Source of the DNA: Burkholderiales bacterium
Lineage (GTDB): Bacteria > Pseudomonadota > Gammaproteobacteria > Burkholderiales > SG8-41
Reading direction: 5' to 3'
Assembly: GCA_038316355.1 (NCBI GenBank)
Contig: JBBQAO010000011.1
Coordinates: 858-64,857 of the forward strand
Length of the DNA: 64,000 nucleotides
Shown: one piece after another, positions 37,049 to 62,957 of the stretch
How positions within the stretch are numbered: position 1 is the stretch's first letter
How the letters are laid out: the number at the start of each line of letters is the position of its first letter
Program-made: the position numbers and the translations under genes
Notes under the pieces: model-generated
Told to the model about the DNA's origin: nothing
Databases searched by the model: none
The model's input: the letters and a program-made list of their open reading frames with translations, nothing else

Positions 37049-37082
37049 GGTCGTACGAAAATGAGAATTTACCCGAAACGAG

Positions 37083-39530: not shown

Positions 39531-39557
39531 CCGCATTGATTTAGAGGAGCAGGCGAC

Positions 39558-41057: not shown

Positions 41058-41107
41058 TCACCGCAGGATCGGGTGCCGGATTCAAACCGGGGTTGTCGGA
41101 CTTGCGC

Positions 41108-41150
41108 AAAAAACCCGGCTCAGGCGAATATCGCCTGAGCCGGGTTTTTT
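41108..41150. terminator. Bidirectional intrinsic terminator between tctA and oxc
   Basis: AAAAAA-CCCGGCTCAGGCG-aata-CGCCTGAGCCGGG-TTTTTT. Confidence 0.85.
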
Positions 41151-41187
41151 GTCGCCTTGCCCTGTAACTGCTGCCCGGCAGTCCAGC

Positions 41188-42924: not shown

Positions 42925-43103
42925 GTTGAGAAGTCTCGTCTTCTTGCCGTCAGTTAAACAAGCGTTTTTCCGGGATATATCTGCCGCAGAATGTGGGCAA
43001 GGCCGGATCCAGGGTATCTCCTCGCTTCACGGCTGATCCAGGCCATCTAAATGTGGCCGTGATTTAACCGGTGGATCATAGGGGGAGGGGTATAAATGTA
43101 CTC

Positions 43104-43117
43104 TTGACCCCGGTCAA
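43104..43117. promoter_or_regulatory. FixK/Fnr-type palindrome TTGACCCCGGTCAA upstream of oxc
   Basis: Perfect half-sites. On the minus strand it lies 23 bp upstream of TATGAT (43080-43075). Confidence 0.5.
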
Positions 43118-43240
43118 TTTTCGCAACAGGACGGCCCAACCTACCTTTCCGCTTATGGGTAGCCGGATGCGGGGAATGGGTTGGATAATGGCGAGTATTG
43201 CGATGCATCAAATGCCCCGTGTTTTATACGGCCGGGCGCG

Positions 43241-43849: not shown

Positions 43850-43952
43850 GGTCGGTGAATTAAAGTGAAGATGCAGTGAGGGCGCAGCGCCGAGCAGGTG
43901 ATTGAATTTTATAACTATTTGTTTATTTTAAGTAAATGATTGAAATGGAATC

Positions 43953-43966
43953 TTGACTCCGGTCAA
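43953..43966. promoter_or_regulatory. FixK/Fnr-type palindrome TTGACTCCGGTCAA upstream of frc, in the divergent region shared with the regulator gene
   Basis: Perfect half-sites. It lies 22 bp upstream of TATAGT (43989-43994), which places the box centre near -41.5. Confidence 0.5.
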
Positions 43967-44129
43967 GGCCGGGGTGATGGCCATTATTTATAGTGGCGAC
44001 CTCTTGCTATGTACAATTATTAAAAATGTTGCGGGCGTACTCACGGTATGGTGCTGAGCGCCGGCGATCACAGCGACGCATGCAAGGGCAGCCCGCCGTT
44101 CATCCGCCGCGGAATTTTTGGAGACCAGA

Positions 44130-45398
44130 ATGGAAGCTTTGAAGGGTGTTCGGATTCTCGACATGACCCACGTGCAGGCGGGTCCGACCTGCTCACAGTT
44201 GCTGGCGTGGATGGGCGCCGACGTGATCAAGTTCGAGCCGCCGCAGGGTGACGCGACACGCGGCCAGTTGCGCGACGTGCCGAACGCGGACAGCCTGTAT
44301 TTCACCATGCTCAACTGCAACAAGCGCTCGATCACGGTCAACATGAAATCGGCCGAAGGCAAAACGGTGTTTGTCGATCTGCTGAAACAGTGCGACATCG
44401 TGATGGAAAACTTCGGCCCCGGCGTGCTCGACCGTTTTGGATTCACCTGGGAAAAAATCCGCGAAATCAATCCGAAGATCGTCATGGGCTCGATCAAGGG
44501 TTTCGGTTCCAGCGGGCCGTATGCCGAGTTCAAGGCCTACGAAAACGTGGCGCAGGCGATGGGCGGCGCGATGAGCACGACAGGTGTTCCCGACGGCCCG
44601 CCGTTTGTCACCGGCGCGCAGATTGGCGATTCCGGCACGGGGCTGCATCTGGCGATCGGTCTGCTCGCAGCGCTGCATCAGGCGAATCGTACCGGCAAGG
44701 GGCAGTATGTCGAAGTGGCGATGATGGACGGCGTGATGAACCTGTGCCGTGTCAAATGGCGCGATCACCAGCGGCTGACCCGGCAGTCACTGTCGGAGTA
44801 TTCGGTGCCCACCAGTCAGGGCATGGGCGATGTGCCGCGCGCCGGCAATGACTCCGGCGGGGGACAACTGGGCAATGCCATCCAGTGCAAACCGGGCGGC
44901 CCGAATGATTTCATTTATGTCGTGGTGCAGGAGGCGGTGTGGGATGCGCTGGCGAAATGCATCGGGCCGGGTCTCGGCCTGCCGGATCTCGCCACCGACC
45001 CGAAATTTGCGTCCATCGGCGAGCGTCGCAAGAACCAGGGCGAGATGTGGGCGCTGATTACGAAGTTCGCGTCGAACCACACCAAGCGTGAATTCATGGC
45101 CATGCTCAATCCGCTGGATGTGCCCTGCGGCCCGATCATGTCCACCGAGGATCTCGCCAATGACGAACATATCCGCGGCCGCGACATGTATGTCGAACTG
45201 GATCATCCGCAGCGCGGAAAGTGGTACAACGTCGGCATGCCGATCAAGCTCTCGGAGTCGCCCGCGGTGATCAAACGTTCGCCGTTGCTCGGCGAGCACA
45301 CCGATGAAGTGCTGAAGGACGTGCTGGGTTACGGCGACGAGCAGATCGGCAAGCTGAGGACCGCAGGCGCGTTCAGCATGCCGCCGAAGAAAAAATAA
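44130..45398 (+). CDS. frc: Formyl-CoA:oxalate CoA-transferase
   Basis: [35 protein letters not shown] (family III CoA-transferase) and [22 protein letters not shown] 6 nt before the ATG at 44130. Confidence 0.95.
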
Positions 45399-46384: not shown

Positions 46385-46407
46385 TCGGCGCCGCCTTCAG
46401 GGCAAGG

Positions 46408-46430
46408 CCACGCTGCGGCGTGGTTTTTTT
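46408..46430 (+). terminator. Intrinsic terminator
   Basis: CCACGC-tgcg-GCGTGG followed by TTTTTTT. Confidence 0.7.
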
Positions 46431-46568: not shown

Positions 46569-46597
46569 TTGGCACCAAGTTCTCAAAAAAACATAAT
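46569..46597 (+). promoter_or_regulatory. Candidate sigma70 promoter of the signalling cluster
   Basis: TTGGCA (46569-46574), 17-bp spacer, CATAAT (46592-46597), about 90 nt before the kinase start. Confidence 0.5.
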
Positions 46598-46687
46598 GCT
46601 TAGAGGCGGATATCGTAAAATCTCTTAAACTCCGCCGTTAAGCCATTCAGCGGAAACAAAAAAACAAGCGGAACGGGCGCAAAAGAG

Positions 46688-49251
46688 ATGAAAAAGCTGA
46701 ATTTCTGGAAGGCCGACTGGTTTGTCGGGCTCATTGTTGCCGTGATCATGCTGATTGCGGCGCGCGGCGACCTGATCCAGAGCCTGGAACGCAAGGCCTA
46801 TGACCTTGGCGTTCAGGCGGCCAGCCGTACGCCGTCCGACCGCATCGCGGTGATCGCCATCGACGATGCCAGTATCGCCAACATCGGCCGCTGGCCTTGG
46901 TCGCGTGATGTCCATGCCCGCATGATCGACCTGCTGGCGGGTGCCAAAGCCAAGGTCATTGCCAACACCACGTTTTTTTTCGAGCCGCAGCGTGATGCCG
47001 GGCTGGTCTACGTCGAAAAACTGCTGAATCTGCACAATGAGCTGACCACCGATCCGAAGGCGGCCGGCAACGAAGGACTGGCGCGGATCGGCGCGGTGCT
47101 GACCGAGGCCGAACAGGCGCTCAACACCGACCGCAAACTCGCCAGCAGCACGAAGGCGGCCGGCAATGTCGTGCTGCCGCTGGTGTTCCAGCAACTGGCC
47201 GAACCCCAGGGCAATCCGGACAAACCGCTGCCACCTTACGTGCTGGCCAGCGGCATGGCCGGCCCGCGCGGCGTGGACACGCTGCCGCCCCCGGGCGTGT
47301 TCCCGCTGTATCCGGTGGCTGAACTCGGACCGGCGGTCGCCGGCATCGGTCATCTGAATGCGGATATCGACGTCGACGGTGCGGTGCGTTCGGAACCGCT
47401 GCTGGTGCGTTATTACGATCAAGTGTTTCCGGCCTTGTCGGTGGTGGTGGCGGCGCGCAGCCTGAATCTGGGTGTTGCCGACATCAAACCGGCCTGGGGT
47501 GAAGCGCTGCAAATCGGCAAGCTGCGGGTGCGCACGGATGCCGAACTGCGCATGCACACCTTCTTTTATGCCGACCGCGACGGCCGTTCGGCGTTTCCGG
47601 TGGATTCTTTTTTTGACGTGCTGAGCGGCAAGGTGCCGGCGGCCAAATTTCAGGACAAGATTGTGCTGATCGGCGCCACGGCGGCCGGCCTCGGTTCGGC
47701 GCAGGTCACGCCGATATCGCCGGCCACAGCACCGGTACTGACTCTGGCGCACACAGTATCGAGCATCCTCGGCGAACATTTTTTTGTGACACCGTCGTGG
47801 GGTATCTGGGTGCAGATCGGCGTCTTTTTGCTGGTGGCGCTGTACCTGATTGTTGCGCTGCCACGGCTCAAGGCCGGTATCGCCGCGTTGCTCAGCCTGG
47901 CGATCGGTGTGGCGCTGCTCGGTGCGCATTTCGGCTTGATGGTGACGCAGCTGACCTGGATCCCGCTGATGGCATCGGTGGCGCTGCTGGCCGTGGGTTA
48001 CGCCGGGCTGACAACCAAACGTTTTCTGGTGACCGAGCGCGGCAAGGAAAAATCCGATGCTGATTCCGCGGAATCCAATCGCATGCTGGGCATTGCCTAC
48101 CAGGCCCAGGGACAACTGGATCTGGCCTGGGACAAGTTCCGGCAATGTCCGCTGGCGGATCCCGTAATGGAAAATCTTTATGCGCTGGCGCTGGATTTCG
48201 AACGCAAGCGGCAGTTCAACAAGGCCGAATCCGTGTTTCAGTACATGGCCGAATTTAATCCGAAATTCCGCGACCTCGAACAGCGGCTGACGCGCGCCAA
48301 AGCGCTGTCGGAAACGGTGATTCTTGGCGGCGCGCAGGGACATCCCGGCGGCACCATGATGCTGCCCGGCGGCGGCATGGAAAAGCCGATGCTCGGTCGC
48401 TACCAGATCGAGAAAGAGCTCGGCAAGGGCGCGATGGGCGTGGTTTATCTCGGCAAGGATCCCAAGATCGGCCGCGTGGTGGCGATCAAGACCATGGCCT
48501 TGTCGCAGGAATTTGAGGGCGATGAGCTGGTCGAGGTCAAAGAGCGCTTTTTCCGCGAAGCGGAAACCGCGGGTCGCCTGACGCACCCCAGCATCGTCAC
48601 CATTTACGATGCCGGCGAAGAACATGATCTGGCGTATATCGCAATGGAATTTCTCAAGGGCCGCGATCTGGCGCCGTTTACCAAACCCGATGCGCTGCTG
48701 CCGATGCTGCAGGTGCTGTCGATCGTTGCCCGCGTCGCCGAGGCGCTGGGTTATGCGCACCTGCAGAATGTCGTGCATCGCGATATCAAACCGGCGAACA
48801 TCATGTACGAGCCGGAAAGTGACATTGCGAAAGTGACCGACTTCGGTATTGCACGGGTGACCGATTCCTCCAAAACCAAGACCGGCATGGTGCTCGGCAC
48901 CCCGTCCTACATGTCGCCGGAACAACTGGCCGGGAAGAAAGTGGAGGGGCGCTCCGACTTGTTTCGCTGGGCGTCATGCTCTACCAGATGTTGAGCGGCA
49001 GTCTGCCTTTCCAGGGTGAATCAATGGCGCAGCTGATGTTCAAGATCGCCAACGAGCCCCACCTTGATATCCGCAAGGTGAAGCCGGATCTGCCTGCGTG
49101 CGTGGCGGCGATCACCAACAAGGCGCTGGCCAAGGATCCCGACCAGAGGTATCAGAACGGCGAGCAGATGGCCAAGGCCATCCGTCTTTGCCTCGGTACC
49201 CTGGTGGACAAACCCCACGCTGATACCGCTGCATCCTTAGGCCCCGAATGA
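46688..49251 (+). pseudogene. CHASE2-sensor Ser/Thr protein kinase, interrupted by a 1-nt frameshift (or a sequence error) in kinase subdomain IX
   Basis: CHASE2-like N-terminus (AVIAIDDASIANIGRWPWSRDVHA), TM segments, a TPR-like linker, and kinase motifs GKGAMGVVYLG, HRDIKPANIM, DFGIAR, GTPSYMSPEQ. ORF 46688..48994 ends RSDLFRWASCSTRC. The next frame continues SLGVMLYQMLSG..PF (ORF 48976..49251). Confidence 0.8.
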
Positions 49252-50060
49252 ACGACTTGTCCAACGTCATTGAAATCACCACCGCCACCCATCCGGGCAT
49301 GGTGCGGTCGCATAACGAGGACAGCATTTCCGCCGACGCCGCGACCGGTCTCGCGGTGCTGGCTGACGGCATGGGCGGTTACAATGCCGGCGAGGTGGCC
49401 AGCGGCATTGCGGTGGCAATGATCAGCGCGGAGCTGAAAAAAGCGCTGGCGGCGGCCAACGGCGAACTCGATGCGGCGGCCGTGGAACGCCTGGTCGGCG
49501 AACATGCGGTGCGCGCCAACAATGCGATTTTTCAGGCTGCGCAAAATCAGGCGCAATACGCCGGCATGGGCACCACGCTGGTTGTTGCGCTGTGGCATGA
49601 CAACTCGCTGGTGGTCGGGCACATCGGCGATTCACGGTTGTACCGGTTTCGTGACAACAAGCTTGAGCAGGTCACGCGCGACCACTCGCTGCTGCAGGAA
49701 CAGATCGACAGCGGCTTGATTACCAAGGCGCAGGCCCGCCATTCGCAGAACAAGAATCTGGTGACGCGGGCGGTGGGCATTGATCCGGAAGTCGAGACCG
49801 AAGTCCACAGCTACCCGGTTCAGGCCGGCGATATCTACCTGCTGTGTTCGGACGGGCTCAACGACATGGTGACGGATGAGGACATGGAGTTGACGCTGGC
49901 GTCGCTGCAGGCCAATCTGCCCCTGGCCGCAGCGCAACTGGTGCAGCAGGCGAACGACAATGGCGGGCGTGACAATGTTTCGGTTATTCTGGCGCGTGTG
50001 CTGAAGAGTTTTCCGGCGCGCTCCGGGTTGGTCGACCGGTTGAAGTCCTGGTTCAGATAA
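49248..50060 (+). CDS. PP2C-family Ser/Thr protein phosphatase
   Basis: HPGMVRSHNEDS, LADGMGG, and LLCSDGLNDMV..DNGGRDNVSVILARV. Start overlaps the kinase stop (ATGA). Confidence 0.9.
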   Translation: MNDLSNVIEITTATHPGMVRSHNEDSISADAATGLAVLADGMGGYNAGEVASGIAVAMISAELKKALAAANGELDAAAVERLVGEHAVRANNAIFQAAQNQAQYAGMGTTLVVALWHDNSLVVGHIGDSRLYRFRDNKLEQVTRDHSLLQEQIDSGLITKAQARHSQNKNLVTRAVGIDPEVETEVHSYPVQAGDIYLLCSDGLNDMVTDEDMELTLASLQANLPLAAAQLVQQANDNGGRDNVSVILARVLKSFPARSGLVDRLKSWFR

Positions 50061-50077
50061 GCAACGGGGATACTACT

Positions 50078-50875
50078 ATGGCGAAGTTGATACTTTCTCT
50101 TGAAGGCTCGATGATCCGCGAGGTTGCGCTCGACAAGGAGCGGATCATGATCGGCCGCAAGCCTTCCAACGAGATCCAGATCGAGAATCTGGCGGTCAGC
50201 GGCGAGCACGCCTGCATTGTGACCATCCTCAACGATTCGTTTCTTGAGGACATGGGTTCGACCAACGGCACCCTGGTCAACGGCAATCCGATCAAGAAGC
50301 ACATTCTGCAGAACAACGATGTGATCGAGATCGGCAAATACAAGCTGAAATACGTTGCAGAGGCGCCGGCGGCAGGCCATGGCAACGAGGATTTCGAGAA
50401 AACGATGATATTGCGCGCCCCGTCCAAGGCGGCGGCTGCGGCGCCCAAGCCGGCCAATGAACCTGCGCCGCCGCCGAAACCCTCGACTCCGCCGCCCACG
50501 CCGCGGTCGGTGCCGCCGCCGGCCAAACCTGCTGAACCCGCACCCGCATCCGCATCCGTACCCGCACCTGCGCCGGCCGCGGTTGCGCCAGCCAAGCCCG
50601 CCGATGCACAGCCCCTCGCTGCGGTGCAGATCCTGAGCGGCCCCAGCGCGGGCAAAGAGCTCGACCTCGTCAAGAACCTGACCACGCTGGGCAAACCCGG
50701 CCTCCAGGTGGCGGTGATTACGCGCCGTCCGCAGGGTTATTTCATCACCCATGTTGAAGGCGCAAAGTTCCCGATCATCAACGGCAAGATGATTGATGCC
50801 CAGGCGCAGCCCCTGCAGGATCATGACGTGATTGAGCTGGCTGGCGTGAAAATGGAATTTTTTGTAAAGCAATAA
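50078..50875 (+). CDS. FHA-domain protein (N-terminal FHA, Pro/Ala-rich linker, second FHA-like C-terminal domain)
   Basis: IMIGRKPSNEIQIENLAVSGEHACI...DMGSTNGTLVNG...L.NNDVIEIG. The C-terminus has LTTLGKPG....HDVIELAGVKMEF. Confidence 0.85.
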   Translation: MAKLILSLEGSMIREVALDKERIMIGRKPSNEIQIENLAVSGEHACIVTILNDSFLEDMGSTNGTLVNGNPIKKHILQNNDVIEIGKYKLKYVAEAPAAGHGNEDFEKTMILRAPSKAAAAAPKPANEPAPPPKPSTPPPTPRSVPPPAKPAEPAPASASVPAPAPAAVAPAKPADAQPLAAVQILSGPSAGKELDLVKNLTTLGKPGLQVAVITRRPQGYFITHVEGAKFPIINGKMIDAQAQPLQDHDVIELAGVKMEFFVKQ

Positions 50876-51003
50876 AAAGATCGCGCGGTGCGTTTTTGTG
50901 AAATGCGCGCTGCGCGACAGACAGCATGGGGGCCGGGCGGATCTGCGGCGCGCCCGGACGATGTGATGGCCCTGTTACGGCAGGGCTGCTTTAGGACGAC
51001 AGG

Positions 51004-53235
51004 GTGAAAAAACATCTGGCGCGCATAGCGATAGGCATGGCGATTGTCGCTTTGTTTCTCGCCCATGCAGTACATGTCTTGCGGGTTCCGCTGCTCGACA
51101 ATCTCGAGGCCATTGTTTACGACACGCGGCTGCGTTTGACGATGCCGCGCACCGTCGATCCGCGCGTGGTCATTCTCGACATCGACGAAAAAAGCCTGCA
51201 GGAAAAGGAAAAAGGCGGCGAAGGCCGCTGGCCATGGCCGCGCGACCGGCTGGCATTGCTGCTCGACAAGCTGTTCGACAAGTACGGCATCGCCGTCGTC
51301 GGCTTCGACGTGGTGTTTGCCGAGCGCGATGAGTCTTCGGGCATCCGTGTGCTCGAGCGGCTGGGGCAGCGCGAGCTGAAGGGGGTGCCGCAATTCCAGT
51401 CCGTGCTGGACCAGGTGCGGCCGCAGCTCGAATACGACGACATCTTCGCACGCAAAATGAAGGGTCGCGCGGTGGTGCTGGGGCATGTGTTCCTCAGCGA
51501 CGATCCGGCCAATGCCACCAAAAAGGGGATGTTGCCGCCACCGGTGCTGCCGGCCGGCGCTTTTGGCGCGCGCAAGGTCGGCGTCACCTCGTGGTCCGGC
51601 TATACCGCAAACCTGGAACGGCTGCAGCGCGCAGCAAGCAGTTCGGGACACATCAATCCGCTGCCGGATCAGGATGGCATTACCCGGCGCGTACCGATAC
51701 TGGTCGAACATGCCGGCGCCTATTACGAGCCGCTGTCGCTGGCAATGGTGCGGGCGGTGCATGGCCAGCCGCCGGTGGTGCCGGTGGTCAATCAGGACAG
51801 TGGCGATTACAGCGGTCTGGAATGGATCAAGACCGGGCCGTTTGAAATCCCGGTCGATTTTCAGGCGGCGGCGCTGGTGCCTTATCGTGGCGCCAAGGGC
51901 AGCTACCGGTATTACTCGCTGGTCGATGTGCTGAACGAGCGCGTTCCTGTCGAAGAACTCCGCGGCAAAATCGCGCTGATCGGCACCACGGCGCCAGGCC
52001 TGCTGGACCTGCGGGCGACACCGGTGGATCCGGTGTATCCCGGGGTGGAGATCCACGCCAACCTGATCAGCGGCATACTCGACGGCAACATCAAGCAGCG
52101 TCCGCCCTATGTGGTCGGCGCCGAGTTTGTGCTGCTGCTGCTGTCCGGCGTGGTGCTGACGCTGCTGTTGCCGCGGCTGACACCGTTCAAATCGATGCTG
52201 GTGACGGCGCTTGCGCTGGTGGCGGTGGTTGTCGCCAATCTGGTGGTGTTCCATACCGGGCATCTGGTGCTGCCACTGGCTTCCGGACTGCTGCTGGTGT
52301 TGATCCTGTTTACCTTCAACATGGCCTACGGCTTCCTGGTCGAGGCGCGCGGCACACGATTGATCACCGGGCTGTTCGGGCAATATGTGCCGCCCGAACT
52401 GGTCGAACAGATGGCGCTCAACCCCGAGCAATTCAACATGGCACCGCGCGCCGAAGATCTCACGGTGCTGTTTTCCGACGTGCGCGGGTTCACCACGATT
52501 TCGGAGAGCCTCTCGCCCGAGGACCTGTCGGTATATATCAATGATTACCTGACTACGATGAGCATGGTGATCCGCGAAGGACATCGCGGCACGCTGGACA
52601 AGTACATCGGCGACGCGATCATGGCTTTCTGGGGCGCCCCGATGGCGGATCTGAACCATGCTCAGAACGCCGTGCTGGCCGCGCTCGACATGATGAAACA
52701 GGCAGTGGTGCTCAACAAAAAATTCAGTGAAAAAGGCTGGCCGCCGTTTGCGATCGGCATCGGCGTCAACTCCGGTGTGATGCGCGTCGGCGACATGGGT
52801 TCGAAGATCCGCAAGGCCTATACCGTGATGGGCGACGCGGTTAATCTGGGCTCCCGGCTGGAAGGCATTACCAAGCAGTATGGGGTCGACATCATCATCG
52901 GTGAACCCACCAAACAGCGTATCACCGGCATCGTGCTGCGTGAAATCGACCTGGTGCAGGTCAAGGGCAAGGATCATCCGGTGGCGATCTACGAGCCGTT
53001 CGGGTTGGAAGGCGAAGTTGAACAAAGCCGGCTCAATGAAATCAAACTCTGGAACCAGGCGCTGCGGTTTTATCGCGCCCAGGAATGGGACAAAGCGGAG
53101 TTGCAACTCATCAATCTCAAGAAAGTTTCAGTGAAGCCCTACCTCTACGACGTGTTTCTGGAGCGTATCGCCGGGTACCGTGCCAATCCGCCGGATTCCG
53201 CATGGAACGGCGTGCACAAGTTTGATACCAAGTAA
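51004..53235 (+). CDS. CHASE2-sensor class III nucleotide cyclase (adenylate-cyclase-like)
   Basis: CHASE2 (VVILDIDEKSL....GRWPWPRDRLA), a TM block, and cyclase motifs LTVLFSDVRGFTTISE, LDKYIGDAIMAFWGAP, YTVMGDAVNLGSRLEG. GTG start. Confidence 0.9.
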   Translation: MKKHLARIAIGMAIVALFLAHAVHVLRVPLLDNLEAIVYDTRLRLTMPRTVDPRVVILDIDEKSLQEKEKGGEGRWPWPRDRLALLLDKLFDKYGIAVVGFDVVFAERDESSGIRVLERLGQRELKGVPQFQSVLDQVRPQLEYDDIFARKMKGRAVVLGHVFLSDDPANATKKGMLPPPVLPAGAFGARKVGVTSWSGYTANLERLQRAASSSGHINPLPDQDGITRRVPILVEHAGAYYEPLSLAMVRAVHGQPPVVPVVNQDSGDYSGLEWIKTGPFEIPVDFQAAALVPYRGAKGSYRYYSLVDVLNERVPVEELRGKIALIGTTAPGLLDLRATPVDPVYPGVEIHANLISGILDGNIKQRPPYVVGAEFVLLLLSGVVLTLLLPRLTPFKSMLVTALALVAVVVANLVVFHTGHLVLPLASGLLLVLILFTFNMAYGFLVEARGTRLITGLFGQYVPPELVEQMALNPEQFNMAPRAEDLTVLFSDVRGFTTISESLSPEDLSVYINDYLTTMSMVIREGHRGTLDKYIGDAIMAFWGAPMADLNHAQNAVLAALDMMKQAVVLNKKFSEKGWPPFAIGIGVNSGVMRVGDMGSKIRKAYTVMGDAVNLGSRLEGITKQYGVDIIIGEPTKQRITGIVLREIDLVQVKGKDHPVAIYEPFGLEGEVEQSRLNEIKLWNQALRFYRAQEWDKAELQLINLKKVSVKPYLYDVFLERIAGYRANPPDSAWNGVHKFDTK

Positions 53236-54002
53236 TGAGGCTGCGCATCCTCGGCTGCAGCGGCGGCATCGGCGGCAACCTGCGCACCACCTCGATGCTG
53301 CTCGACGACGATGTGCTGATTGATGCCGGGACCGGCGTCGGCGATCTGTCGCTGCAGCAACTGGCGGACATCGACCATATTTTCCTGACGCACTCCCATC
53401 TGGATCATGTGACCTCAATCCCGTTCCTGCTCGACACCGTCGGCTGGCAGCGCAGCAAACCGGTCACGCTGTATGCGATAGAGGAGACGCTCGACATCCT
53501 CAGCGAGCACCTGTTCAACTGGAAGCTGTGGCCCGATTTCCGGCAGATTCCGCACGCGCAGTCGCCAGTGCTGCGTTATGCCCCGGTCCGGGTGGGGGTG
53601 CCGGTGCGTCTTACCGGCGGGCGGACCATCACACCGGTGGCGGCGAACCACGTGGTGCCTGCCGTGGGTTTTCACCTGGATTCCGGTGCCGCCAGCCTGG
53701 TCTTTACCGGAGACACCACCAGCCAGGACGAATCCTGGAAATATATTAATAAAATCAATAATTTAAAGCACATCATCATCGAGTCGGCGTTGTCGGATGC
53801 GGAGCGCGAACTTGCGGTAATCTCCAAGCATCTCTGTCCGGGCCTGCTGGCGGAGGAACTGGCCAAACTGCAGTTGGACCCGGCCATTTATGTGACACAC
53901 TTCAAACCACGGGAAGCGGAGCTGATCATGGAGCAGATCGTGGCCCGGGTGCCCGGGCGACGGTTGCGCATGCTGGAGCAGAATCAGGTTTTTGAATTCT
54001 GA
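53235..54002 (+). CDS. Class II 3',5'-cyclic-nucleotide phosphodiesterase (MBL fold)
   Basis: MRLRILGCSGGIG....TSMLLDDDVLIDAGTG and HIFLTHSHLDHV (HxHLDH signature). Start overlaps the cyclase stop by 1 nt. Confidence 0.8.
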   Translation: MRLRILGCSGGIGGNLRTTSMLLDDDVLIDAGTGVGDLSLQQLADIDHIFLTHSHLDHVTSIPFLLDTVGWQRSKPVTLYAIEETLDILSEHLFNWKLWPDFRQIPHAQSPVLRYAPVRVGVPVRLTGGRTITPVAANHVVPAVGFHLDSGAASLVFTGDTTSQDESWKYINKINNLKHIIIESALSDAERELAVISKHLCPGLLAEELAKLQLDPAIYVTHFKPREAELIMEQIVARVPGRRLRMLEQNQVFEF

Positions 54003-54035
54003 GTCCGGCGCGGCGCTGCAGGACCCCGCGTCGGC

Positions 54036-54107
54036 ACCAGCAGCAACAGCAGCACCAGCAGCAACAGCAGTAACAGCAGTAACAGCAGTAACAGTAGCAA
54101 CAGTAGC
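54036..54107. repeat. Eight tandem 9-bp units (AMC AGY AGY), a CAG/CAA-rich microsatellite
   Basis: Read directly: accagcagc aacagcagc accagcagc aacagcagt x3 aacagtagc x2. Confidence 0.9.
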
Positions 54108-54128
54108 AACGGAAACAGAGGGGTGATC

Positions 54129-56507
54129 ATGAGTACAGTACTCCAGAGCAAGCCGGTAGCCGCCGAAAATCTGGCTGAAAAAGTAAACTTTCAGCAGAAG
54201 CTGCAGGTCGTTACCAACAAGATCCATGCGACCAAGAACATCGACGAGATCATTCTCGAGATGTCGCAGGAACTCTGCACCCTGTTCAATGCCGACCGCC
54301 TGACCATTTATCTGCTCAGCGAGGACAAGGGCTCAATCATTTCCAAGGTCAAGACCGGGCTGACTTCGTTCAAGGACATCAAGCTCCCGATCAACGAGCA
54401 GTCCATCGCCGGCTTCGTCGCCACCAACAAGCGTGTGGTCAACATCCGTGACGTCTATGACGATGCGGAGCTCAAATCCTACAGCGCGCAGCTGAATTTC
54501 CTCAAAGCGGTCGATGCCAAGACCGGGTACCGCACCAAGCAGATGCTGGTGGCCCCGGTGCTGGATGCCAAAGCCAAGGACCTGATCGGCGTGGTCCAGA
54601 TCATCAACAACAAGGGCGGGCAGCCGTTTCCGCCGATGATGGAAGAGGGTGTGTTGTCGCTGACCGAGACGCTGGCCATTGCCTTCCGCCAGCGCCAGGG
54701 TCCGATGATGCAGGTGCGCAGCAAGTACGACGGGCTTGTCACCAACGCGGTGATTTCGGGTGAAGAACTCGAACTCGCCCAGCGTTCGGCGCGGCGCAAG
54801 AACCTCGACGTCGAAATCGTGCTGAAGGACGAGTTCCAGGTCAAGCTGCCGGCGCTGGGTGATGCGCTGGGAAGCTATTTCGGCGTGCCCTACGAGCCGT
54901 TCAAACAGGATCGCATCAAGCCGCCGGATCTGATGAAAAACATGAACCGCGAGTTCTGTCAGACCAATCAGTGGATGCCGCTGGACGAAACCAAAGACGG
55001 CATTGTCGTGATGACCACCGACCCGGAGCGGGTCAAGGCATCACGCATGGTCAGCAATGTGTTTCCGAAGAGCAAGATTGTCTTCCGGGTCACCACCAAC
55101 AGCGAGTTTGTAAGCACGCTGGACCAGATGTTTGGCGCGAGCAGCGGGCTTGAGGATTCCGGCAACATCGAGGACATGCTCGGCACGCTGGATGACGATG
55201 CCGAAGGCGAAGGCACCGGTGGTGATGATGTGGCCTCTGCCGCGGCCGACAACGAGCTGGTCAAACTCGTCAACAAGATCATCATCGATGCTTACCAGAT
55301 GGGCGCTTCGGACATCCACATCGAACCTTATCCCGGCAAGGCGAAAACCGAAATCCGCTTTCGTCGTGACGGCACGCTGCAGCCGTACATCCAGATTCCG
55401 GCAAGTTACCGCAGTGCGCTCGCCGCGCGGCTGAAAATCATGTGCGACCTGGATATTTCGGAGCGCCGTCGTCCGCAGGACGGCAAGATCAAATTCAAGA
55501 AATACGGGCCGCTGGACATCGAATTGCGGGTGGCGACCATCCCGTCCGCCGGTGGCGTCGAAGACATCGTGATGCGGATACTGGCGGCGGGGGAGCCGAT
55601 CCAGCTGGATAAGCTCGGCCTGACCAAATACAACCTCGAGACGCTGAAGGAGGTCGTGTCCAAGCCGTACGGCCTGTTCTTTGTCTGTGGCCCGACCGGC
55701 TCCGGCAAGACGACAACGCTGCACTCGGTGCTGGGTTACCTGAATACTTCGGACACCAAAATCTGGACCGCGGAAGACCCGGTCGAGATTACGCAAAAAG
55801 GCCTGCGCCAGGTGCAGATGAACCCCAAGGCGGGGATGACCTTTGCGGTGGCAATGAAGGCCTTCCTGCGCGCTGACCCGGACATCATCATGGTCGGCGA
55901 GATGCGCGACAAGGAAACCGCCGGCACCGGTATTGAGGCTTCGCTGACGGGTCACCTGGTGTTCGCCACACTGCATACCAACAGTGCGCCGGAATCGATC
56001 ATCCGCCTGCTCGACATGGGTATGGATCCGTTCAACTTTGCCGATGCGCTGTTGGGCATTCTGGCGCAGCGTCTGGCCAAGCGACTGTGCGGCAAGTGCA
56101 AGAAACCGCACAATGCGACTGCCGAGGAGATTCAGGCGCTGATGGTCGAGTATGCGATGGAACTGAAAAACACCGAGACCTGGAAAAAGGATCCCAAGGC
56201 GGCCGAAGCCAAACTGCTGGAAGACTGGATTGCCAATTATGGCGGCGAGAGCGGCAAGCTGGTGATTCACGACCCGGTGGGTTGCGAAACCTGCGGCGGC
56301 AGTGGTTACAAGGGGCGGGTGGGTCTGCACGAGCTGCTGGTGGGCACCGACGCGCTGAAAAAGAACATCCAGGAACATGCGCGCGTTGCGGAAATGGTGG
56401 CGACCGCACTGGAATACGGCATGCGTACCCTGAAGCAGGACGGTATCGAGAAAGTGCTGATGGGCATCACCGACATGAAGCAGGTCCGCGCTGTCTGTAT
56501 CAAATAG
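54129..56507 (+). CDS. PilB/GspE-family secretion/pilus ATPase with N-terminal GAF domain
   Basis: GAF-like residues ~25-190 (DEIILEMSQELCTLFNADRLTIYLL...SIAGFVA...GYRTKQMLVAPV..LIGVVQIINN), a T2SSE_N-like region, Walker A GPTGSGKTTTL, the Asp box and Walker B region (DPDIIMVGEMRD), the His box (TGHLVFATLHTN), and tetracysteine CGKCKK...CETCGGSGYKGR. GAGGGG Shine-Dalgarno before the ATG at 54129. Confidence 0.9.
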   Translation: MSTVLQSKPVAAENLAEKVNFQQKLQVVTNKIHATKNIDEIILEMSQELCTLFNADRLTIYLLSEDKGSIISKVKTGLTSFKDIKLPINEQSIAGFVATNKRVVNIRDVYDDAELKSYSAQLNFLKAVDAKTGYRTKQMLVAPVLDAKAKDLIGVVQIINNKGGQPFPPMMEEGVLSLTETLAIAFRQRQGPMMQVRSKYDGLVTNAVISGEELELAQRSARRKNLDVEIVLKDEFQVKLPALGDALGSYFGVPYEPFKQDRIKPPDLMKNMNREFCQTNQWMPLDETKDGIVVMTTDPERVKASRMVSNVFPKSKIVFRVTTNSEFVSTLDQMFGASSGLEDSGNIEDMLGTLDDDAEGEGTGGDDVASAAADNELVKLVNKIIIDAYQMGASDIHIEPYPGKAKTEIRFRRDGTLQPYIQIPASYRSALAARLKIMCDLDISERRRPQDGKIKFKKYGPLDIELRVATIPSAGGVEDIVMRILAAGEPIQLDKLGLTKYNLETLKEVVSKPYGLFFVCGPTGSGKTTTLHSVLGYLNTSDTKIWTAEDPVEITQKGLRQVQMNPKAGMTFAVAMKAFLRADPDIIMVGEMRDKETAGTGIEASLTGHLVFATLHTNSAPESIIRLLDMGMDPFNFADALLGILAQRLAKRLCGKCKKPHNATAEEIQALMVEYAMELKNTETWKKDPKAAEAKLLEDWIANYGGESGKLVIHDPVGCETCGGSGYKGRVGLHELLVGTDALKKNIQEHARVAEMVATALEYGMRTLKQDGIEKVLMGITDMKQVRAVCIK

Positions 56508-56532
56508 CATAGCCCCCTTCGTCCCGACCCCC

Positions 56533-58152
56533 ATGAATCAACCGGAACTTTTGCCGGCGGCGACCGAACTGGCCCACCGGCTCGGCGAGCTGCTGCGCAT
56601 CGGTGTCGCGTTGTCCCGCGAGCGCGACATCAACCGCCTGCTCGAGGCCATCCTGATTGCGGCGAAGGACATCACCAACGCCGATGGCGGCACCCTCTAC
56701 CGGATGACCGATGAGAAGTCACTGCGCTTCGAGATCATGCGCAATGACACGCTGGGCATTGCCATGGGCGGCACCAGCGGCGTGGATATCCCGTTTTATC
56801 CGGTCAACCTGTTCGGCAAGGATGGCGGCGCCAACAACAGCATGGTTGCCACCTATGCCGTGCACCACGACTGTTCGGTAAACGTTGCGGATGCCTACAC
56901 GGAAGCCGGATTCGATTTCTCCGGCACCAAGAATTTCGATAAGAAAACCGGTTACCGGTCAACGTCATTCCTCACCGTGCCGATGAAGAATCACGAGAAT
57001 GAAATCATCGGCGTGCTGCAGTTGATCAATGCGAAGAACAGCAAAACCGGGGAGGTGGTGCCGTTCTCGCAAAACGACCAGCAACTGGCGGAGTCACTGG
57101 CTTCGCAGGCGGCGATTGCGCTGACCAACCGGCTGCTGATCAATCATCTGGAAAGCCTGTTCGAGTCCTTCATCCAGATGATCAATGCCGCGATCGACGA
57201 CAAGTCTCCGTACACCGGCGGACATTGCGAGCGGGTGCCGACGCTGACCCTGCTGCTCGCCGAGGCGGTCAACAATTGCAAGGTCGGGCCGCTCAGGGAT
57301 TTCGCCATGACCGACCGTGATCGATATGAACTGAAAATCGCCGGCCTGCTGCACGATTGCGGCAAGGTGACGACCCCCGTTCATGTGGTCGACAAGGCGA
57401 CCAAGCTGCAGACAATTTATGACCGCATCGAACTGATCGACACGCGGTTCGAGGTCATCAAGCGCGACGCCCAGTTGGCGCTGCTGACCGGCGGCGCATC
57501 GTCAACGGTGACTGAGGCCCTGCTGCGTGACATCGAGCAGGACCGCGAATTCCTGCGACGGACCAATGTCGGCGGCGAGTTCATGCGCGAGGAAGACATG
57601 GCCCGGGTCAAGGCGATCGCCACCCGCTACCGCTGGCAGCGCCCCGATGGCAGCATCGGTGATTTCCTGACGGCGGACGAAATTGAAAACCTGACCATAC
57701 GTGCCGGCACGCTGACGCCCGCCGAGCGGCAGATCATCAATCACCATATCGACGTCACCATCCAGATGCTGGAGTCATTGCCATGGCCCCGCCATCTGAA
57801 GCGGGTGCCGGAATATGCCGGCGGCCACCACGAGCGCATGGACGGCAAGGGCTACCCGCGGGGGCTGACGCGCGACCAGATGTCGGTGCAGGCGCGCTGC
57901 ATGGGTATCGCGGATATTTTTGAGGCGCTGACGGCGAAGGACAGGCCCTACAAGAAAGGCAAGACCCTGACCGAGTCATTGACCATACTCGGCAAGTTCA
58001 AGCTGAACGGGCACGTCGATCCGGATCTGTTCGACGTGTTCATGTGGGAGAAGGTCTACGAGAAATATGCCAGTGAATTCCTCGATCCTGAACAGATTGA
58101 TGCCGTGGACGTCTCGCGGATTCCGGGTTACCAGCCGCCGCCAGGCCAATAA
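56533..58152 (+). CDS. GAF-domain HD-GYP phosphohydrolase
   Basis: N-terminal GAF (LLEAILIAAKDITNADGGTLY...GYRSTSFLTVPM..IIGVLQLINA), and HD-GYP motifs LLHDCGKV and GGHHERMDGKGYPRGL. Confidence 0.9.
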   Translation: MNQPELLPAATELAHRLGELLRIGVALSRERDINRLLEAILIAAKDITNADGGTLYRMTDEKSLRFEIMRNDTLGIAMGGTSGVDIPFYPVNLFGKDGGANNSMVATYAVHHDCSVNVADAYTEAGFDFSGTKNFDKKTGYRSTSFLTVPMKNHENEIIGVLQLINAKNSKTGEVVPFSQNDQQLAESLASQAAIALTNRLLINHLESLFESFIQMINAAIDDKSPYTGGHCERVPTLTLLLAEAVNNCKVGPLRDFAMTDRDRYELKIAGLLHDCGKVTTPVHVVDKATKLQTIYDRIELIDTRFEVIKRDAQLALLTGGASSTVTEALLRDIEQDREFLRRTNVGGEFMREEDMARVKAIATRYRWQRPDGSIGDFLTADEIENLTIRAGTLTPAERQIINHHIDVTIQMLESLPWPRHLKRVPEYAGGHHERMDGKGYPRGLTRDQMSVQARCMGIADIFEALTAKDRPYKKGKTLTESLTILGKFKLNGHVDPDLFDVFMWEKVYEKYASEFLDPEQIDAVDVSRIPGYQPPPGQ

Positions 58153-58198: not shown

Positions 58199-58519
58199 TT
58201 AATCTTTTTTCGAAACCGCCACCACCAGCTTTTCGGTGACTGCTTCTATGAACCCTGCGTCGTAGCCGCGTTCCTTCATTTCCCAGCGGAAGGTATTGGC
58301 GAGGCGGGCCTTTTTGTAAATGCCGAGTTTGTGCTGCTTGCGGAATGCGGTGGCTTTTTCGAATAACTCGTCCACTTTGCGCTCCAGATTTTTCAGTGAC
58401 AGGCCGGGATTGCCTGGCACCATCTTTCCCTCGGGCGGACGAAGCTGGCTGACCTCGACTGCAAGTGCGCAGGCAAATTCATCCACTTGTTTTCCGGAAG
58501 CGGAGCCAAACAGTCCCAT
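58199..58519 (-). CDS. Hypothetical protein (106 aa, soluble, Lys-rich C-terminus)
   Basis: A clean ORF on the minus strand, divergent from the TPR genes. I recognise no family. The coding call rests only on ORF length and its position against the implausible plus-strand extension. Confidence 0.45.
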   Translation of the reverse strand: MGLFGSASGKQVDEFACALAVEVSQLRPPEGKMVPGNPGLSLKNLERKVDELFEKATAFRKQHKLGIYKKARLANTFRWEMKERGYDAGFIEAVTEKLVVAVSKKD

Positions 58520-58652
58520 GCGTGCATCCTTGTCAGTCGAGCGGCCGGTCCGGCCGTGTAGAATGCAAGGATACCAAGTGAATCAAGTCCGGTGTAGCCC
58601 CCGACACGCCATTCAAGGGCCGGGCGCGCAAATCCAGGCCTGCCGCACAAGC

Positions 58653-60443
58653 ATGCTGAAAAACCTGATGATGCACCTGCTGCGCGCTCCGGCACTAGTG
58701 CTGCGTGCACGGCGCGAACGCAGCGCGGTGTCCGCGCTGGAACCTGCGCTGGCCTGGTTTGGCGAAAAAAAATACGAAGATGCAGTCCGGGCCAGCAAGG
58801 CAGTGATTGCGCAAGCGCCGCGCAGCGCGCAGGCCAACCATCTTTGCGGGCGGGCATTGTCGGCGCTGGGACGCCATGCCGAGGCCATGCAGTATCTGCG
58901 CGCGGCTGCCGCGACGGATCCTGAGCTGGCGGCGGCGCATGCCGATCTTGCCGATGTATTGTTCCAATCTGGCCAACTCAAGGGTGCTGAAAGCAGCAGC
59001 CGGCGCGCCGTTGCCTTGCGGCCCGACGAACTCGAATACCGCCTGCGTCTGGTGGAGATACTGGAGAACGCCGGCGAGACGGCGGAGGCGCTCGCTGAAT
59101 TGTCGTTTGCCCAGGAATTTGCGCCCGAGCGTTTTGACCTGTTGATCCGGCTGTTCAGGGCGCTCAGCCGGCTGGGCATGTGCCCAGAAGCCTTGCAGAT
59201 TGCAGAGCGTGCCGTGCTGGAAAACGGCGAAACCGATCAGACCCTGTACCTGCTCGCAGCCGCGCGTTACGCCGTCGCGGATATGCAGGGTGCTGTCGAG
59301 GCTTGTCAGAAAACACTGGCCTGCCGTGCCGACCGGCCTGAGGTTCACGTGACGCTGGGATCCGCTTTTTTTGCCTTGGGGCGGATTGAAGACGCCACCG
59401 CAGCCTATCAGCGCGCACTGACCATAGCCCCGGATTTTCCAGATGCGCTGTTTCACATGGGTTTGATCAAGCTGATGTCGGCGGAGTACCGCGAAGGCTG
59501 GCAGGGTTTTGAGCAGCGCTTCCGGCGCGATAAAAACAAGGCAATGCGGCCATGTTCACCGCCCTGGGACGGGACATCGCTGCAGGGGCGCACCGTGCTG
59601 GTGATGCGTGAGCAGGGACTGGGCGACGAGATCATGTTTGCGTCCTGTTACCCGCAGTTGATCCGCCAGGCGCAGTACTGTTTCATCGAGTGCGACCCGC
59701 GCCTGGAGAAGTTGTTTGCACGATCATTCCCGGACGCGGTGTTCTATCCACTCACAGACATCAAAACAGCCGTGCAGACCAACCCGGGTGCCGCGGTTGA
59801 CGCCCGGGTTTACGCGGGGAGCCTTCCCCAGTATTCGCGCAGAGTGCCCGGGGATTTTCCCGCGCACCATGGGTACCTCAAAGTGGATCCGCAGCGGACC
59901 GCTTACTGGCGTACCCGGCTGGAGTCGCTGGGTCCCGGCCTGAAAGTCGGCCTCTCCTGGCGCGGAGGCACGGTATTTACCCACCGCGAGCGGCGGACAT
60001 TGTCGCTGGAAACCATGTTGCCGGTGCTGTCCGTGCCAGGAGTACGCTGGATCAATCTGCAATACGGCAAACGTGAACATGAAATTGCAGCGTTGCGGGC
60101 GATGAGCGGCATGGAGATTGTTGACTGGCCGGAAGCGATTGATGACGACTACGACGAAACTGCGGCGCTGGTCAGTGCGCTGGATCTGGTGATCAGTGTC
60201 TGCACCTCGGTCGTCCATCTGACGGGTGCGCTGGGCCAGCTGGCCTGGGTCATCACGGCACGTGTTCCGGAGTGGCGTTATGGCTTGCGCGGCGCATCCA
60301 CGCCCTGGTATCCGTCAGTAACACTGTTCCGGCAGGAAGCGCAGGGCGTGTGGGACCCTGTCCTTGTCAATATTGAACAGGCATTAAGGCAGCGGGTTGC
60401 CGCTGTGACATCCGAAGCCGCTACAATCGCCCCGCTGAAATGA
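58653..60443 (+). CDS. TPR-repeat protein with C-terminal GT9-like (heptosyltransferase-fold) glycosyltransferase domain, copy 1
   Basis: Start set at MLKNLMMHLLRAP by alignment with the downstream paralog. TPR helices (AQANHLCGRAL...AMQYLRAAAATDP). The C-terminal part has VMREQGLGDEIMF, GLSWRGG, GVRWINLQYG, DYDETAALVSALDLVISVCTSVVHLTGALG. Confidence 0.75.
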   Translation: MLKNLMMHLLRAPALVLRARRERSAVSALEPALAWFGEKKYEDAVRASKAVIAQAPRSAQANHLCGRALSALGRHAEAMQYLRAAAATDPELAAAHADLADVLFQSGQLKGAESSSRRAVALRPDELEYRLRLVEILENAGETAEALAELSFAQEFAPERFDLLIRLFRALSRLGMCPEALQIAERAVLENGETDQTLYLLAAARYAVADMQGAVEACQKTLACRADRPEVHVTLGSAFFALGRIEDATAAYQRALTIAPDFPDALFHMGLIKLMSAEYREGWQGFEQRFRRDKNKAMRPCSPPWDGTSLQGRTVLVMREQGLGDEIMFASCYPQLIRQAQYCFIECDPRLEKLFARSFPDAVFYPLTDIKTAVQTNPGAAVDARVYAGSLPQYSRRVPGDFPAHHGYLKVDPQRTAYWRTRLESLGPGLKVGLSWRGGTVFTHRERRTLSLETMLPVLSVPGVRWINLQYGKREHEIAALRAMSGMEIVDWPEAIDDDYDETAALVSALDLVISVCTSVVHLTGALGQLAWVITARVPEWRYGLRGASTPWYPSVTLFRQEAQGVWDPVLVNIEQALRQRVAAVTSEAATIAPLK

Positions 60444-62268: not shown

Positions 62269-62445
62269 GTTTACGCATGGCGGCAAGAGATTGTTCGTAA
62301 TGTGGAGCAATGAACGCTTAAACCCATCCAAAAAATGTGCGTGATGTCACAGCGGTTTGATTCGGAGTTTAAATTGGACTAAAAAAATTAATAAAAACAA
62401 TGAGTTATGTTCTATTTTGGAAGGGGTGGCTTTATGTGTTTCGGC

Positions 62446-62522: not shown

Positions 62523-62957
62523 ATGAGAAACCTGCAAAAAGGCTTTACGCTGATCGAACTGATGATCGTTGTGGCGATTATCGGCATTCTGGCGGCGATT
62601 GCGATTCCGCAGTATCAGGACTACATCACCCGTGCGAAGTGGCAGGACAATATCGCCCGCGTGCAATCCTGGAAAACCGCGATTGCCGAGTGCCTGCAGA
62701 ACAACGCCGGCTCACAATCCGAGTGCGACACCACCGCTGAAGTGACTTCGGCTACCGGCGCCGTGTTCCCCACCGGCACCAGCGCCAACCTGTCGAGCAT
62801 CTCGTTCAGCGTCGCCGGGATCATGATCGCCGGCACCCCGGCAGTGTCGGATTGCAACGTTCTGGTTGTTCCGCAAATCAGCGCGACTTCAGTGACTTGG
62901 GGCTACACGGTCAGCGGCACCGGCTGCGGCAAATCGAAAACCGGCGTGGGCACCTGA
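62523..62957 (+). CDS. pilA: Type IVa major pilin
   Basis: Class III signal peptide [34 protein letters not shown] and a C-terminal Cys pair (SDC....GTGC). Confidence 0.9.

Follow-up and report, generated by a model that had tools for sequence, protein, structure and literature searches.

Type IV pili drive attachment, twitching motility, DNA uptake and entry into biofilms. Second messengers are known to reach them either through cyclic di-GMP (c-di-GMP), which acts on the motor via MshEN, PilZ or FimX, or through cyclic AMP (cAMP), which acts on transcription via Vfr/CRP. Here we analyse a 64-kb stretch of DNA from a Burkholderiales bacterium (GCA_038316355.1, contig JBBQAO010000011.1), hereafter the window, whose positions are used for all coordinates. 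It carries seven consecutive plus-strand genes (46688 to 58152) for a CHASE2 Ser/Thr kinase, a PP2C phosphatase, an FHA protein, a CHASE2 cyclase, a phosphodiesterase (PDE), a PilB-like ATPase with a GAF domain and a GAF-HD-GYP enzyme. We give slightly better than even odds (about 55%) to the reading that these genes form a conserved chromosomal operon of uncultured and cultured Betaproteobacteria (Burkholderiales sensu GTDB), in which a local cAMP circuit and a threonine-phosphorylation switch gate a pilus motor.

The closest described motors are the c-di-GMP-gated extension ATPases MshE of Vibrio cholerae, PilB of Myxococcus xanthus, PilB2 of Clostridium perfringens and PilF of Thermus thermophilus, in all of which a nucleotide messenger acts directly on the motor. 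The window ATPase shares with this group an N-terminal MshEN/GSPII domain, the N2D and CTD domains and a tetracysteine zinc site. It differs in that both RLG...Q motifs are missing, an extra GAF domain of the cyclic nucleotide monophosphate (cNMP) type stands in front, and the predicted ligand is cAMP rather than c-di-GMP. The GAF domains of the window resemble those of Anabaena CyaB1/CyaB2 and of mammalian PDE2, PDE5, PDE6 and PDE10 in their IAG, VDxxTGYRT and VQxxNK segments. Unlike in those proteins, however, the outputs are a secretion-superfamily ATPase and an HD-GYP domain, the GAF is single rather than tandem, and the NKFDE motif is approximate. For the last enzyme of the module the nearest counterparts are Tlr0485 of Thermosynechococcus, a GAF-HD-GYP c-di-GMP phosphodiesterase activated by cAMP, and PmGH, whose structure has been solved; Lcd1, a GAF-GGDEF protein, is likewise activated by cAMP. 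The window enzyme is also a GAF-HD-GYP protein with all HD-GYP catalytic residues, but it comes from another phylum, shares an operon with its own cyclase, PDE and pilus-type ATPase, contains an HD-GYP insertion of approximately 80 amino acids, and has a ligand that is predicted.

A further parallel is the CyaB/CpdA/Vfr system of Pseudomonas aeruginosa, which also has a class IIIb Lys/Thr cyclase and in which cAMP is tied to type IV pili. The Pseudomonas system, however, has a MASE2 sensor on its cyclase, a class III PDE and cAMP acting on transcription via Vfr. In the window the cyclase carries CHASE2 as its sensor, the PDE has a metallo-beta-lactamase (MBL) fold, and the predicted direct target of cAMP is the motor protein itself. 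The MBL fold is shared with class II PDEs (yeast PDE1, Vibrio fischeri CpdP) and with atypical enzymes (Mycobacterium tuberculosis Rv1339, Corynebacterium glutamicum CpdA), and the THSHLDH motif fits both signatures. The window protein departs from class II PDEs in its scores, which stop far short of the curated cut-offs, and in its length of 255 amino acids, much less than that of PDE1; RNase Z-like nucleases also score nearly as well. The first three genes recall, by analogy, the PpkA/PppA/Fha1 trio of the type VI secretion system (T6SS), where a membrane Ser/Thr kinase, a PP2C phosphatase and an FHA protein also stand beside a component of a secretion-type machine. In contrast to that trio, the window holds no T6SS genes, the kinase sensor is CHASE2, and the arm is missing in some relatives and frameshifted here.

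As Tlr0485 is a characterised cAMP-activated GAF-HD-GYP protein, that half of the module is not new in kind. What is new is the putatively GAF-gated PilB-like motor and the conserved seven-gene wiring; the individual domains and the GAF-HD-GYP enzyme are not. We found no description of a GAF-gated PilB-like ATPase or of this module in the literature searched, and a 2024 review of PilB regulation nowhere mentions GAF. This agrees with an earlier model-made annotation of the window, hereafter the original prediction, which knew of no characterised GAF-gated PilB/GspE ATPase.

Gene order and conservation of the module

The original prediction described seven same-strand genes with a set of named domains, motifs and tight junctions. 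All were located as described in the open reading frame (ORF) listing with its translations, and every named domain scored above its Pfam gathering cut-off (CHASE2, Pkinase, PP2C, FHA, Guanylate_cyc, PDEase_II, GAF, T2SSE and HD domains). An ATGA overlap joins the kinase and PP2C genes at 49248, gaps of 17 nt and 128 nt precede and follow the FHA gene, the cyclase and PDE genes overlap by 1 nt at 53235, and gaps of 120–126 nt and 25 nt stand before the ATPase and HD-GYP genes. No terminator-like site was found on the plus strand between the module genes.

Relatives of the ATPase were sought by scanning one genome per species, which matched at least 600 contigs, and the best 80 loci were analysed. 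All of these best 80 of at least 600 relatives came from Betaproteobacteria, among them Gallionella, Sideroxydans, Nitrosomonas, Rhodocyclaceae, Sulfuritalea, Sulfuricella, Methyloversatilis, Chitinimonas, Parachitinimonas, Noviherbaspirillum and Methylophilaceae. Synteny was assessed by tblastn of each window protein against the loci, counting those with at least 9 kb of upstream and at least 1.8 kb of downstream flank (n = 50). All seven genes were present in the same order (kinase, PP2C, FHA, cyclase, PDE, ATPase, HD-GYP) and on the same strand in 33 of the 50 species-representative loci, at 50–70% amino-acid identity, and the gene order is thus kept in Betaproteobacteria. The other loci contained subsets of the module, lacking the kinase, lacking the kinase and the cyclase, or reduced to PDE-ATPase(-HD-GYP) alone. 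In Noviherbaspirillum the cyclase, HD-GYP and PDE genes lie on the opposite strand, divergent from the ATPase gene.

All-against-all clustering of the flanking ORFs found a prepilin gene to be the one conserved feature beyond the module, save that the closest relatives also share the same housekeeping flanks; the flanking genes differ between genera. Because order and strand are kept at 50–70% identity and little else is conserved in the flanks, the comparison argues that the block is a unit under selection, with the PDE and the GAF-ATPase (together with the GAF-HD-GYP enzyme) as its core.

A further gene of approximately 355 amino acids, absent from the window, lies between the PDE and ATPase genes in some 20–29 relatives. 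It encodes a degenerate and a canonical CAP-type cNMP_binding domain (6e-21) fused to a rhodanese domain (e.g. L054 8900-10000, L020, L040, L061). The insertion of such a putative third reader at this position gives independent support to the reading of the module as a cyclic nucleotide circuit.

Components of the putative cAMP circuit

The cyclase gene (51004..53235, plus strand) encodes a CHASE2 domain (8e-58), a transmembrane segment and a class IIIb cyclase domain (Guanylate_cyc, 1e-19) with the motifs DKYIGDAIM and YTVMGDAVN. The pair of Lys and Thr is the ATP-specifying pair of class IIIb cyclases, which are often responsive to bicarbonate. The original prediction had picked out this pair by eye, correctly: K533 and T607 (substrate) are invariant in 57 of 57 orthologues, as are D492 and D537 (metal) and N614 and R618 (transition state). 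The nearest solved relatives of the domain are adenylate cyclases, including P. aeruginosa CyaB (3R5G, 3.5e-30). By these residues the protein is a catalytically complete class IIIb enzyme, predicted to be an adenylate cyclase.

The PDE gene (53235..54002, plus strand) encodes an MBL-fold protein with matches to Lactamase_B_2 (2e-16) and PDEase_II (1.6e-14; 54 bits, a partial match). Its THSHLDH motif fits both the HxHLDH signature of class II PDEs and the [T/S]HxHxDH signature of atypical class II enzymes known from Rv1339, and its metal ligands (H53, H55, D57, H58, H139, D160 and H222) are invariant across 27 sequences. With a profile of the family, yeast PDE1 was the best solved match (2.8e-11, positions 47-214), with a common FN..IWPD segment. 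The original prediction had assigned the protein to class II outright. Its motif and metal ligands bear this out, but by full-length and curated models it is a borderline member. We therefore regard it as a probable cNMP phosphodiesterase related to class II, rather than a proven class II member, because the curated cut-offs were not reached.

The ATPase gene (54129..56507, plus strand; alternative GTG start 54123) begins at ATG 54129 in the JGI annotation, which gives a protein of 792 amino acids. The GAF domain (4e-8) spans approximately residues 30-190, a degenerate MshEN domain (1e-12) residues 200-340 and the T2SSE ATPase domain (2e-114) residues 373-790. Residues 205-792 align with the PilB equivalog model TIGR02538 from end to end (model positions 6-562), but the score of 493 bits falls short of the 675.65 required. 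For the GspE equivalog TIGR02533 the score was 448 bits where 630.25 are needed; gsp genes are absent from the vicinity, and the protein does not classify as GspE. The best solved relatives are M. xanthus PilB at the top, Geobacter PilB and Thermus PilF, all ahead of EpsE. With PilB aligned end to end yet below the cut-off, and with PilB and PilF as its solved relatives, the protein is best described from its sequence as a hexameric ATPase that is PilB-like but of a distinct subfamily.

The c-di-GMP-binding MshEN motif consists of two copies of RLGxxL(L/V/I)xxG(L/V/I/F)(L/V/I)xxxxLxxxLxxQ, in which Arg and Gln are critical (PMC12943098). When the window ATPase is aligned with M. xanthus PilB, its motif I reads SKYDGLV...A and its motif II DVEIVLK...Y, which does not fit a c-di-GMP receptor. 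The RLG...Q pattern is lost across all 74 family members, which carry S/T-K-Y-D, with a conserved K-Y-D, in place of R-L-G and keep the hydrophobic core. As the MshEN fold is kept and its ligand residues are lost, we infer that the added GAF domain took over the regulatory role of MshEN. An exhaustive search with the N-terminal 262 residues returned 192 cluster representatives (50% identity, E <= 1e-30). In three of these (P0137, P0155 and P0157; 940-1125 amino acids) MshEN-T2SSE is preceded by two or three GAF domains in tandem. With such representatives among the 192, the GAF-MshEN-T2SSE architecture reaches proteins more divergent than the betaproteobacterial relatives sampled here.

The last gene (56533..58152, plus strand) encodes a GAF domain (5e-12) followed by an HD-GYP domain (HD/HD_5, 7e-41) that is interrupted by an insertion of ~80 amino acids. 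The residues of the HD and HHExxDGxGYP motifs (H274, D275 and H432-H433-E434...D437..G440-Y441-P442) are invariant in 62 of 62 sequences, and on this basis the enzyme is predicted to be catalytically complete.

That the last two genes each begin with a GAF domain was part of the original prediction; both regions scored as GAF in Pfam, with CyaB2, PDE2, PDE5, PDE6 and PDE10 as their best solved relatives. The ATPase GAF matched both GAF-A and GAF-B of Anabaena CyaB2 (4e-29; 32% identity to GAF-B), followed by GAF-B of PDE2A (2e-12), PDE6, PDE5 and PDE10. The HD-GYP GAF, which is 27% identical to that of the ATPase, matched GAF-A/B of PDE5 (4e-19), CyaB2 (2e-14) and the GAF of PmGH. For both domains the significant PDB matches were almost exclusively of the cNMP type; the single exception was PmGH, itself a GAF-HD-GYP protein. 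The GAF domains of CyaB2 bind cAMP. Three segments, SIAG.VA, VD..TGYR(T/S)...L..P and GV.Q.IN.K...PF, are at least 90% conserved across 74 ATPases and 62 HD-GYP proteins. The NKFDE motif is approximated as NNK..PF....EE and NAK..PF...DQ, with contact residues mapped by eye from the PDE2A structure. Judged by these matches, both domains are members of the cNMP-binding GAF group of the PDE and CyaB proteins.

The phosphorylation arm, module boundaries and neighbouring genes

The kinase gene (46688..49251, plus strand) encodes a CHASE2 domain (6e-52), three transmembrane segments and a Ser/Thr protein kinase domain (Pkinase, 1e-41). It is followed by the gene for a PP2C-type Ser/Thr phosphatase (49248..50060, plus strand; PP2C_2 1.5e-16), which exceeds the cut-off of the Stp1/IreP family (246.7 bits against 230). 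The next gene (50078..50875, plus strand) encodes an FHA protein with an N-terminal FHA domain (2.5e-20), a Pro/Ala-rich linker and a C-terminal domain, and with weak matches to the TagH and GltG models. The kinase Lys, HRD and DFG residues are invariant in 36 orthologues and the phosphothreonine-binding residues of the FHA domain (GR, SxxH, NG) in 38, and the metal motifs of the PP2C protein are in place, so that this arm carries the expected residues throughout.

The CHASE2 kinase of the original prediction has the domains assigned to it but is not a single intact ORF in the window, where a 1-nt deletion had been overlooked. The gene is split into ORFs of 768 (46688..48994) and 91 amino acids (48976..49251) in different frames. 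One T of a TTTT run is absent at 48962, inside kinase subdomain IX (SDLF|SLGV), where the window reads GAC TTG TTT CGC TGG and every relative TTG TTT TCG CTG. The frameshift truncates the kinase after subdomain VIII/IX, and the gene of the module is not intact in the window. In a metagenome contig from JGI (L081), which agrees with the window at 99.8% identity over 14 kb, the extra T is present and the kinase has 854 amino acids. Because this contig and all relatives keep the T, the frameshift is either a very recent strain-level lesion or a homopolymer assembly error. Elsewhere in the window (17114-19222) lies the gene for another Ser/Thr protein kinase, of 702 amino acids and with its kinase domain at the C-terminus. 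Five relatives (e.g. L022 17848-19221) encode, downstream of the module, a Ser/Thr kinase that has a cNMP-binding domain fused to its C-terminus; these fusions are another link between cNMP signalling and phosphorylation in its vicinity.

Upstream, a strong terminator-like hairpin (46404..46427, plus strand; 10-bp stem followed by a T-run) closes the formyltransferase gene and marks the 5' boundary of the module. The good sigma-70-like promoter of the original prediction corresponds to a TTGGCA-17-CATAAT site (46569..46597, plus strand) whose -35 element is the start coordinate given there, 46569; the site lies just after the hairpin, matches the consensus at 10 of 12 positions and is the best site in the region. 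However, promoter-like sites across the region are not above chance (6 observed against 4.0 +/- 1.9 expected), and the site is therefore a candidate based on its consensus match. An Rfam search of the whole window found tRNA only, with no riboswitch 5' of the module or of the pilin gene described below. The spacer between the PDE and ATPase genes contains an imperfect CAG/CAA/TAA repeat (54037..54110, plus strand) made up of CAGCAACAG..., three copies of CAGCAGTAA and two copies of CAGTAGCAA. Its length varies between strains: the near-identical contig L081 differs here by 9 bp, a sign that this tract, directly upstream of the ATPase ribosome-binding site, may be prone to slippage.

The flanks are unrelated to the module. 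Upstream are genes for a family III CoA-transferase and the formyltransferase, and a formate/oxalate cluster occupies 27525-45398, with NAD-linked formate dehydrogenase subunits, formate-tetrahydrofolate ligase, an oxalyl-CoA-decarboxylase-like thiamine pyrophosphate enzyme, a family III CoA-transferase and TctABC-type transporters. Among these oxalate-metabolism genes, 2.8 kb upstream of the module, a 202-amino-acid cNMP_binding protein that is possibly Crp/Fnr-like is encoded on the minus strand (43241-43849). Downstream, a small conserved ORF on the minus strand is followed by the genes for two TPR proteins and a type IVa prepilin. The minus-strand ORF (58199-58519, 106 amino acids) is convergent with the HD-GYP gene, has no family match and occurs at the same place in several relatives at 33-78% identity. 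The two TPR proteins are large (58320-60443 and 60485-62242), and the second has a GT9-like C-terminus. In some 10-18 relatives, too, TPR/glycosyltransferase-like proteins are encoded close to the pilin gene, and they may modify the pilin.

The prepilin gene (62523..62957, plus strand) encodes a typical type IVa leader (MRNLQKG|FTLIEL, N_methyl motif) and confirms the pilin locus that had been noted 4.4 kb downstream of the module. In 27 of 55 loci a prepilin gene lies within 1.5 kb downstream of the HD-GYP gene, a number that rises to 35 when the distance is extended to 6.5 kb, and the type IVa prepilin gene is the commonest neighbour outside the module. A CRP/Vfr-like palindrome, TGTGCGTGATGTCACA (62336..62351, plus strand), stands 187 nt upstream of the pilin start codon. 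The two closest relatives have a similar site at the same offset from their pilin genes (L001 6708; L002 16358), against a background of 0.004 per 400 nt, and no such site was found upstream of 54 other pilin genes. CRP-like sites were not commoner than chance across the window as a whole. The palindrome is a weak lead that cAMP-CRP may control pilin transcription in the clade of the window and these two relatives.

Proposed circuit and alternative explanations

In the proposed circuit, CHASE2 would sense an extracytoplasmic signal and the cyclase would raise cAMP, which the PDE would reset. Binding of cAMP to the ATPase GAF would act as an allosteric switch of the type IV pilus (PilB-type) extension motor, the GAF doing here what MshEN does in MshE and PilB by binding c-di-GMP. 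The GAF of the HD-GYP enzyme would likewise bind cAMP and so activate c-di-GMP hydrolysis, as in Tlr0485. With cAMP acting on both GAF proteins, a high cAMP level would thus turn pili on and bring c-di-GMP down. By analogy with PpkA/PppA/Fha1, the kinase, phosphatase and FHA protein could add another post-translational gate, itself fed by CHASE2 and acting on the cyclase, on the ATPase or on how they assemble. The writer, eraser and two readers at the centre of this scheme had already been proposed in the original prediction, and they are well supported by computation through the cNMP-type GAF domains, the Lys/Thr cyclase, the synteny and the third reader found in relatives.

A bolder version, to which we give somewhat less than an even chance, extends the scheme to the whole family. 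A widespread group of PilB-like ATPases would have exchanged c-di-GMP sensing by MshEN for direct cAMP sensing through one to three GAF domains. In Betaproteobacteria it would be embedded in a self-contained operon, whose CHASE2-gated cyclase and dedicated PDE set a local cAMP pool that turns the motor on and, through the GAF-HD-GYP enzyme, c-di-GMP down, while a second CHASE2 input acts via a T6SS-like threonine-phosphorylation gate. A type IV filament motor under post-translational control by cAMP would then be described for the first time.

Several results weigh against these proposals. The ATPase misses the cut-off of the PilB equivalog as well as that of the GspE equivalog. No PilC, PilD or secretin gene was found in the 64-kb window, where Pfam scans of the large genes gave no T2SSF, peptidase A24 or secretin match and so confirmed the absence of a GspF/PilC platform or secretin noted earlier; none is conserved near the module across the 80 loci with approximately 10 kb of flank. 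A nearby pilin gene is absent in approximately one third of loci, and the ATPase gene of Nitrosomonas and Methylophilaceae has no cyclase gene nearby. As GAF specificity cannot be read from sequence with certainty, cGMP or another ligand is possible. An AlphaFold2 model of the full ATPase (34-sequence alignment, 80-97% identity) reached a mean predicted local distance difference test score of 50.9 and a predicted template modelling score of 0.29, too poor to use, and because it could not serve for a fold search the GAF assignment rests on sequence. For the PDE, RNase Z and beta-CASP nucleases were close runners-up to PDE1, with Cas14 close as well; the PF02112 match is limited to ~60 residues (45-104, model positions 82-143 of 340), and NCBIfam NF041851 aligned end to end at 42 bits against a cut-off of 400. 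The kinase is absent in several relatives and broken in the window, and the phosphorylation arm is therefore dispensable. Finally, we found no ligand-binding, enzyme-activity, transcript or phenotype data for any family member.

Some of these points raise the question of which machine the ATPase serves. The same circuit could control another machine of the type IV filament class encoded elsewhere (a secretion pseudopilus, a DNA-uptake pilus or an MSH-type pilus), or the ATPase could be a stand-alone nucleotide-gated regulator. The missed equivalog cut-offs, the lack of platform, peptidase and secretin genes nearby and the third of loci without a nearby pilin gene would all fit this. So would the pilus genes of Sideroxydans and Gallionella, for which PMC3770913 describes dispersed type IVa genes (pilMNOPQ, minor pilins, pilT/U) as well as an MSH cluster. 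We nevertheless consider it unlikely, given that the PilB model aligns end to end and outscores the GspE model, that the best solved relatives are PilB and PilF, and that a type IVa prepilin gene is the commonest non-module neighbour. Within approximately 10 kb of flank, none of the 80 loci yielded another ATPase, and pilD was found near one locus only. At this Methylophilaceae locus (L076 3322-12346) the GAF-ATPase gene has no PDE, cyclase or HD-GYP gene beside it; pilD-coaE-zapD lies 5.6 kb upstream of it, and neither pilB nor pilC adjoins pilD. This hints that the GAF-ATPase itself could be the pilus extension motor in some lineages.

Whether the readers respond to the cyclase beside them is a separate matter. 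The GAF domains might sense cGMP or a ligand that is not a cyclic nucleotide, with the neighbouring cyclase and PDE not feeding them directly. GAF domains in general bind many ligands, that of the HD-GYP enzyme is closest to the cGMP-binding GAF-A of PDE5, NKFDE is only approximated, and some lineages keep the GAF-ATPase without an adjoining cyclase. Against this stand the invariant Lys/Thr pair, the closeness of the ATPase GAF to the cAMP-binding GAFs of CyaB2, the PDE and, in many genomes, a CAP-type cNMP-binding protein directly adjoining, and the precedent of Tlr0485 for cAMP acting on a GAF-HD-GYP enzyme; we judge this explanation distinctly unlikely. Even less credit goes to the view that the genes are neighbours by ancestry or genome organisation, the kinase/PP2C/FHA trio and the cyclase-to-HD-GYP group being two unrelated units. 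A 128-nt gap lies between the FHA and cyclase genes, and the kinase, or the kinase and cyclase, are missing from several relatives, with the kinase broken here. Yet order and strand are kept across genera at 50–70% identity while the flanks change, the kinase-PP2C-FHA and cyclase-PDE junctions overlap or nearly abut, and no plus-strand terminator-like site separates the genes. An anti-phage defence island of the Pycsar or kinase type was also considered and rejected as very improbable. PADLOC matched the cyclase domain to PycC models (2.5e-26) and the kinase domain to PD-T4-6, and a precomputed Pfam table lists Anti-Pycsar_Apyc1 for the PDE. The PADLOC matches, however, are generic kinase- and cyclase-domain ones at superfamily level, and the Apyc1 match was not reproduced in our own Pfam scan. 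The FHA, PDE and HD-GYP proteins match no defence model and the ATPase does so marginally (mad8, E = 1e-4). Moreover, the cyclase has a purine (ATP) Lys/Thr pair and an extracytoplasmic sensor, and the block is syntenic in the core chromosome, between housekeeping flanks, in many genera.

The module is a compact set of genes, all of whose parts can be tested enzymatically. To our knowledge no ligand of the CHASE2 sensor domain has been described, and the module would give this domain two readable outputs within one operon. Environmentally important lineages carry the module, among them iron oxidisers (Gallionella, Sideroxydans), ammonia oxidisers (Nitrosomonas) and Rhodocyclaceae. If it is indeed a local cAMP circuit that gates a pilus motor, these bacteria would have a third route of pilus control, in which cAMP acts directly and fast on the motor and is hard-wired to c-di-GMP turnover in the same operon.

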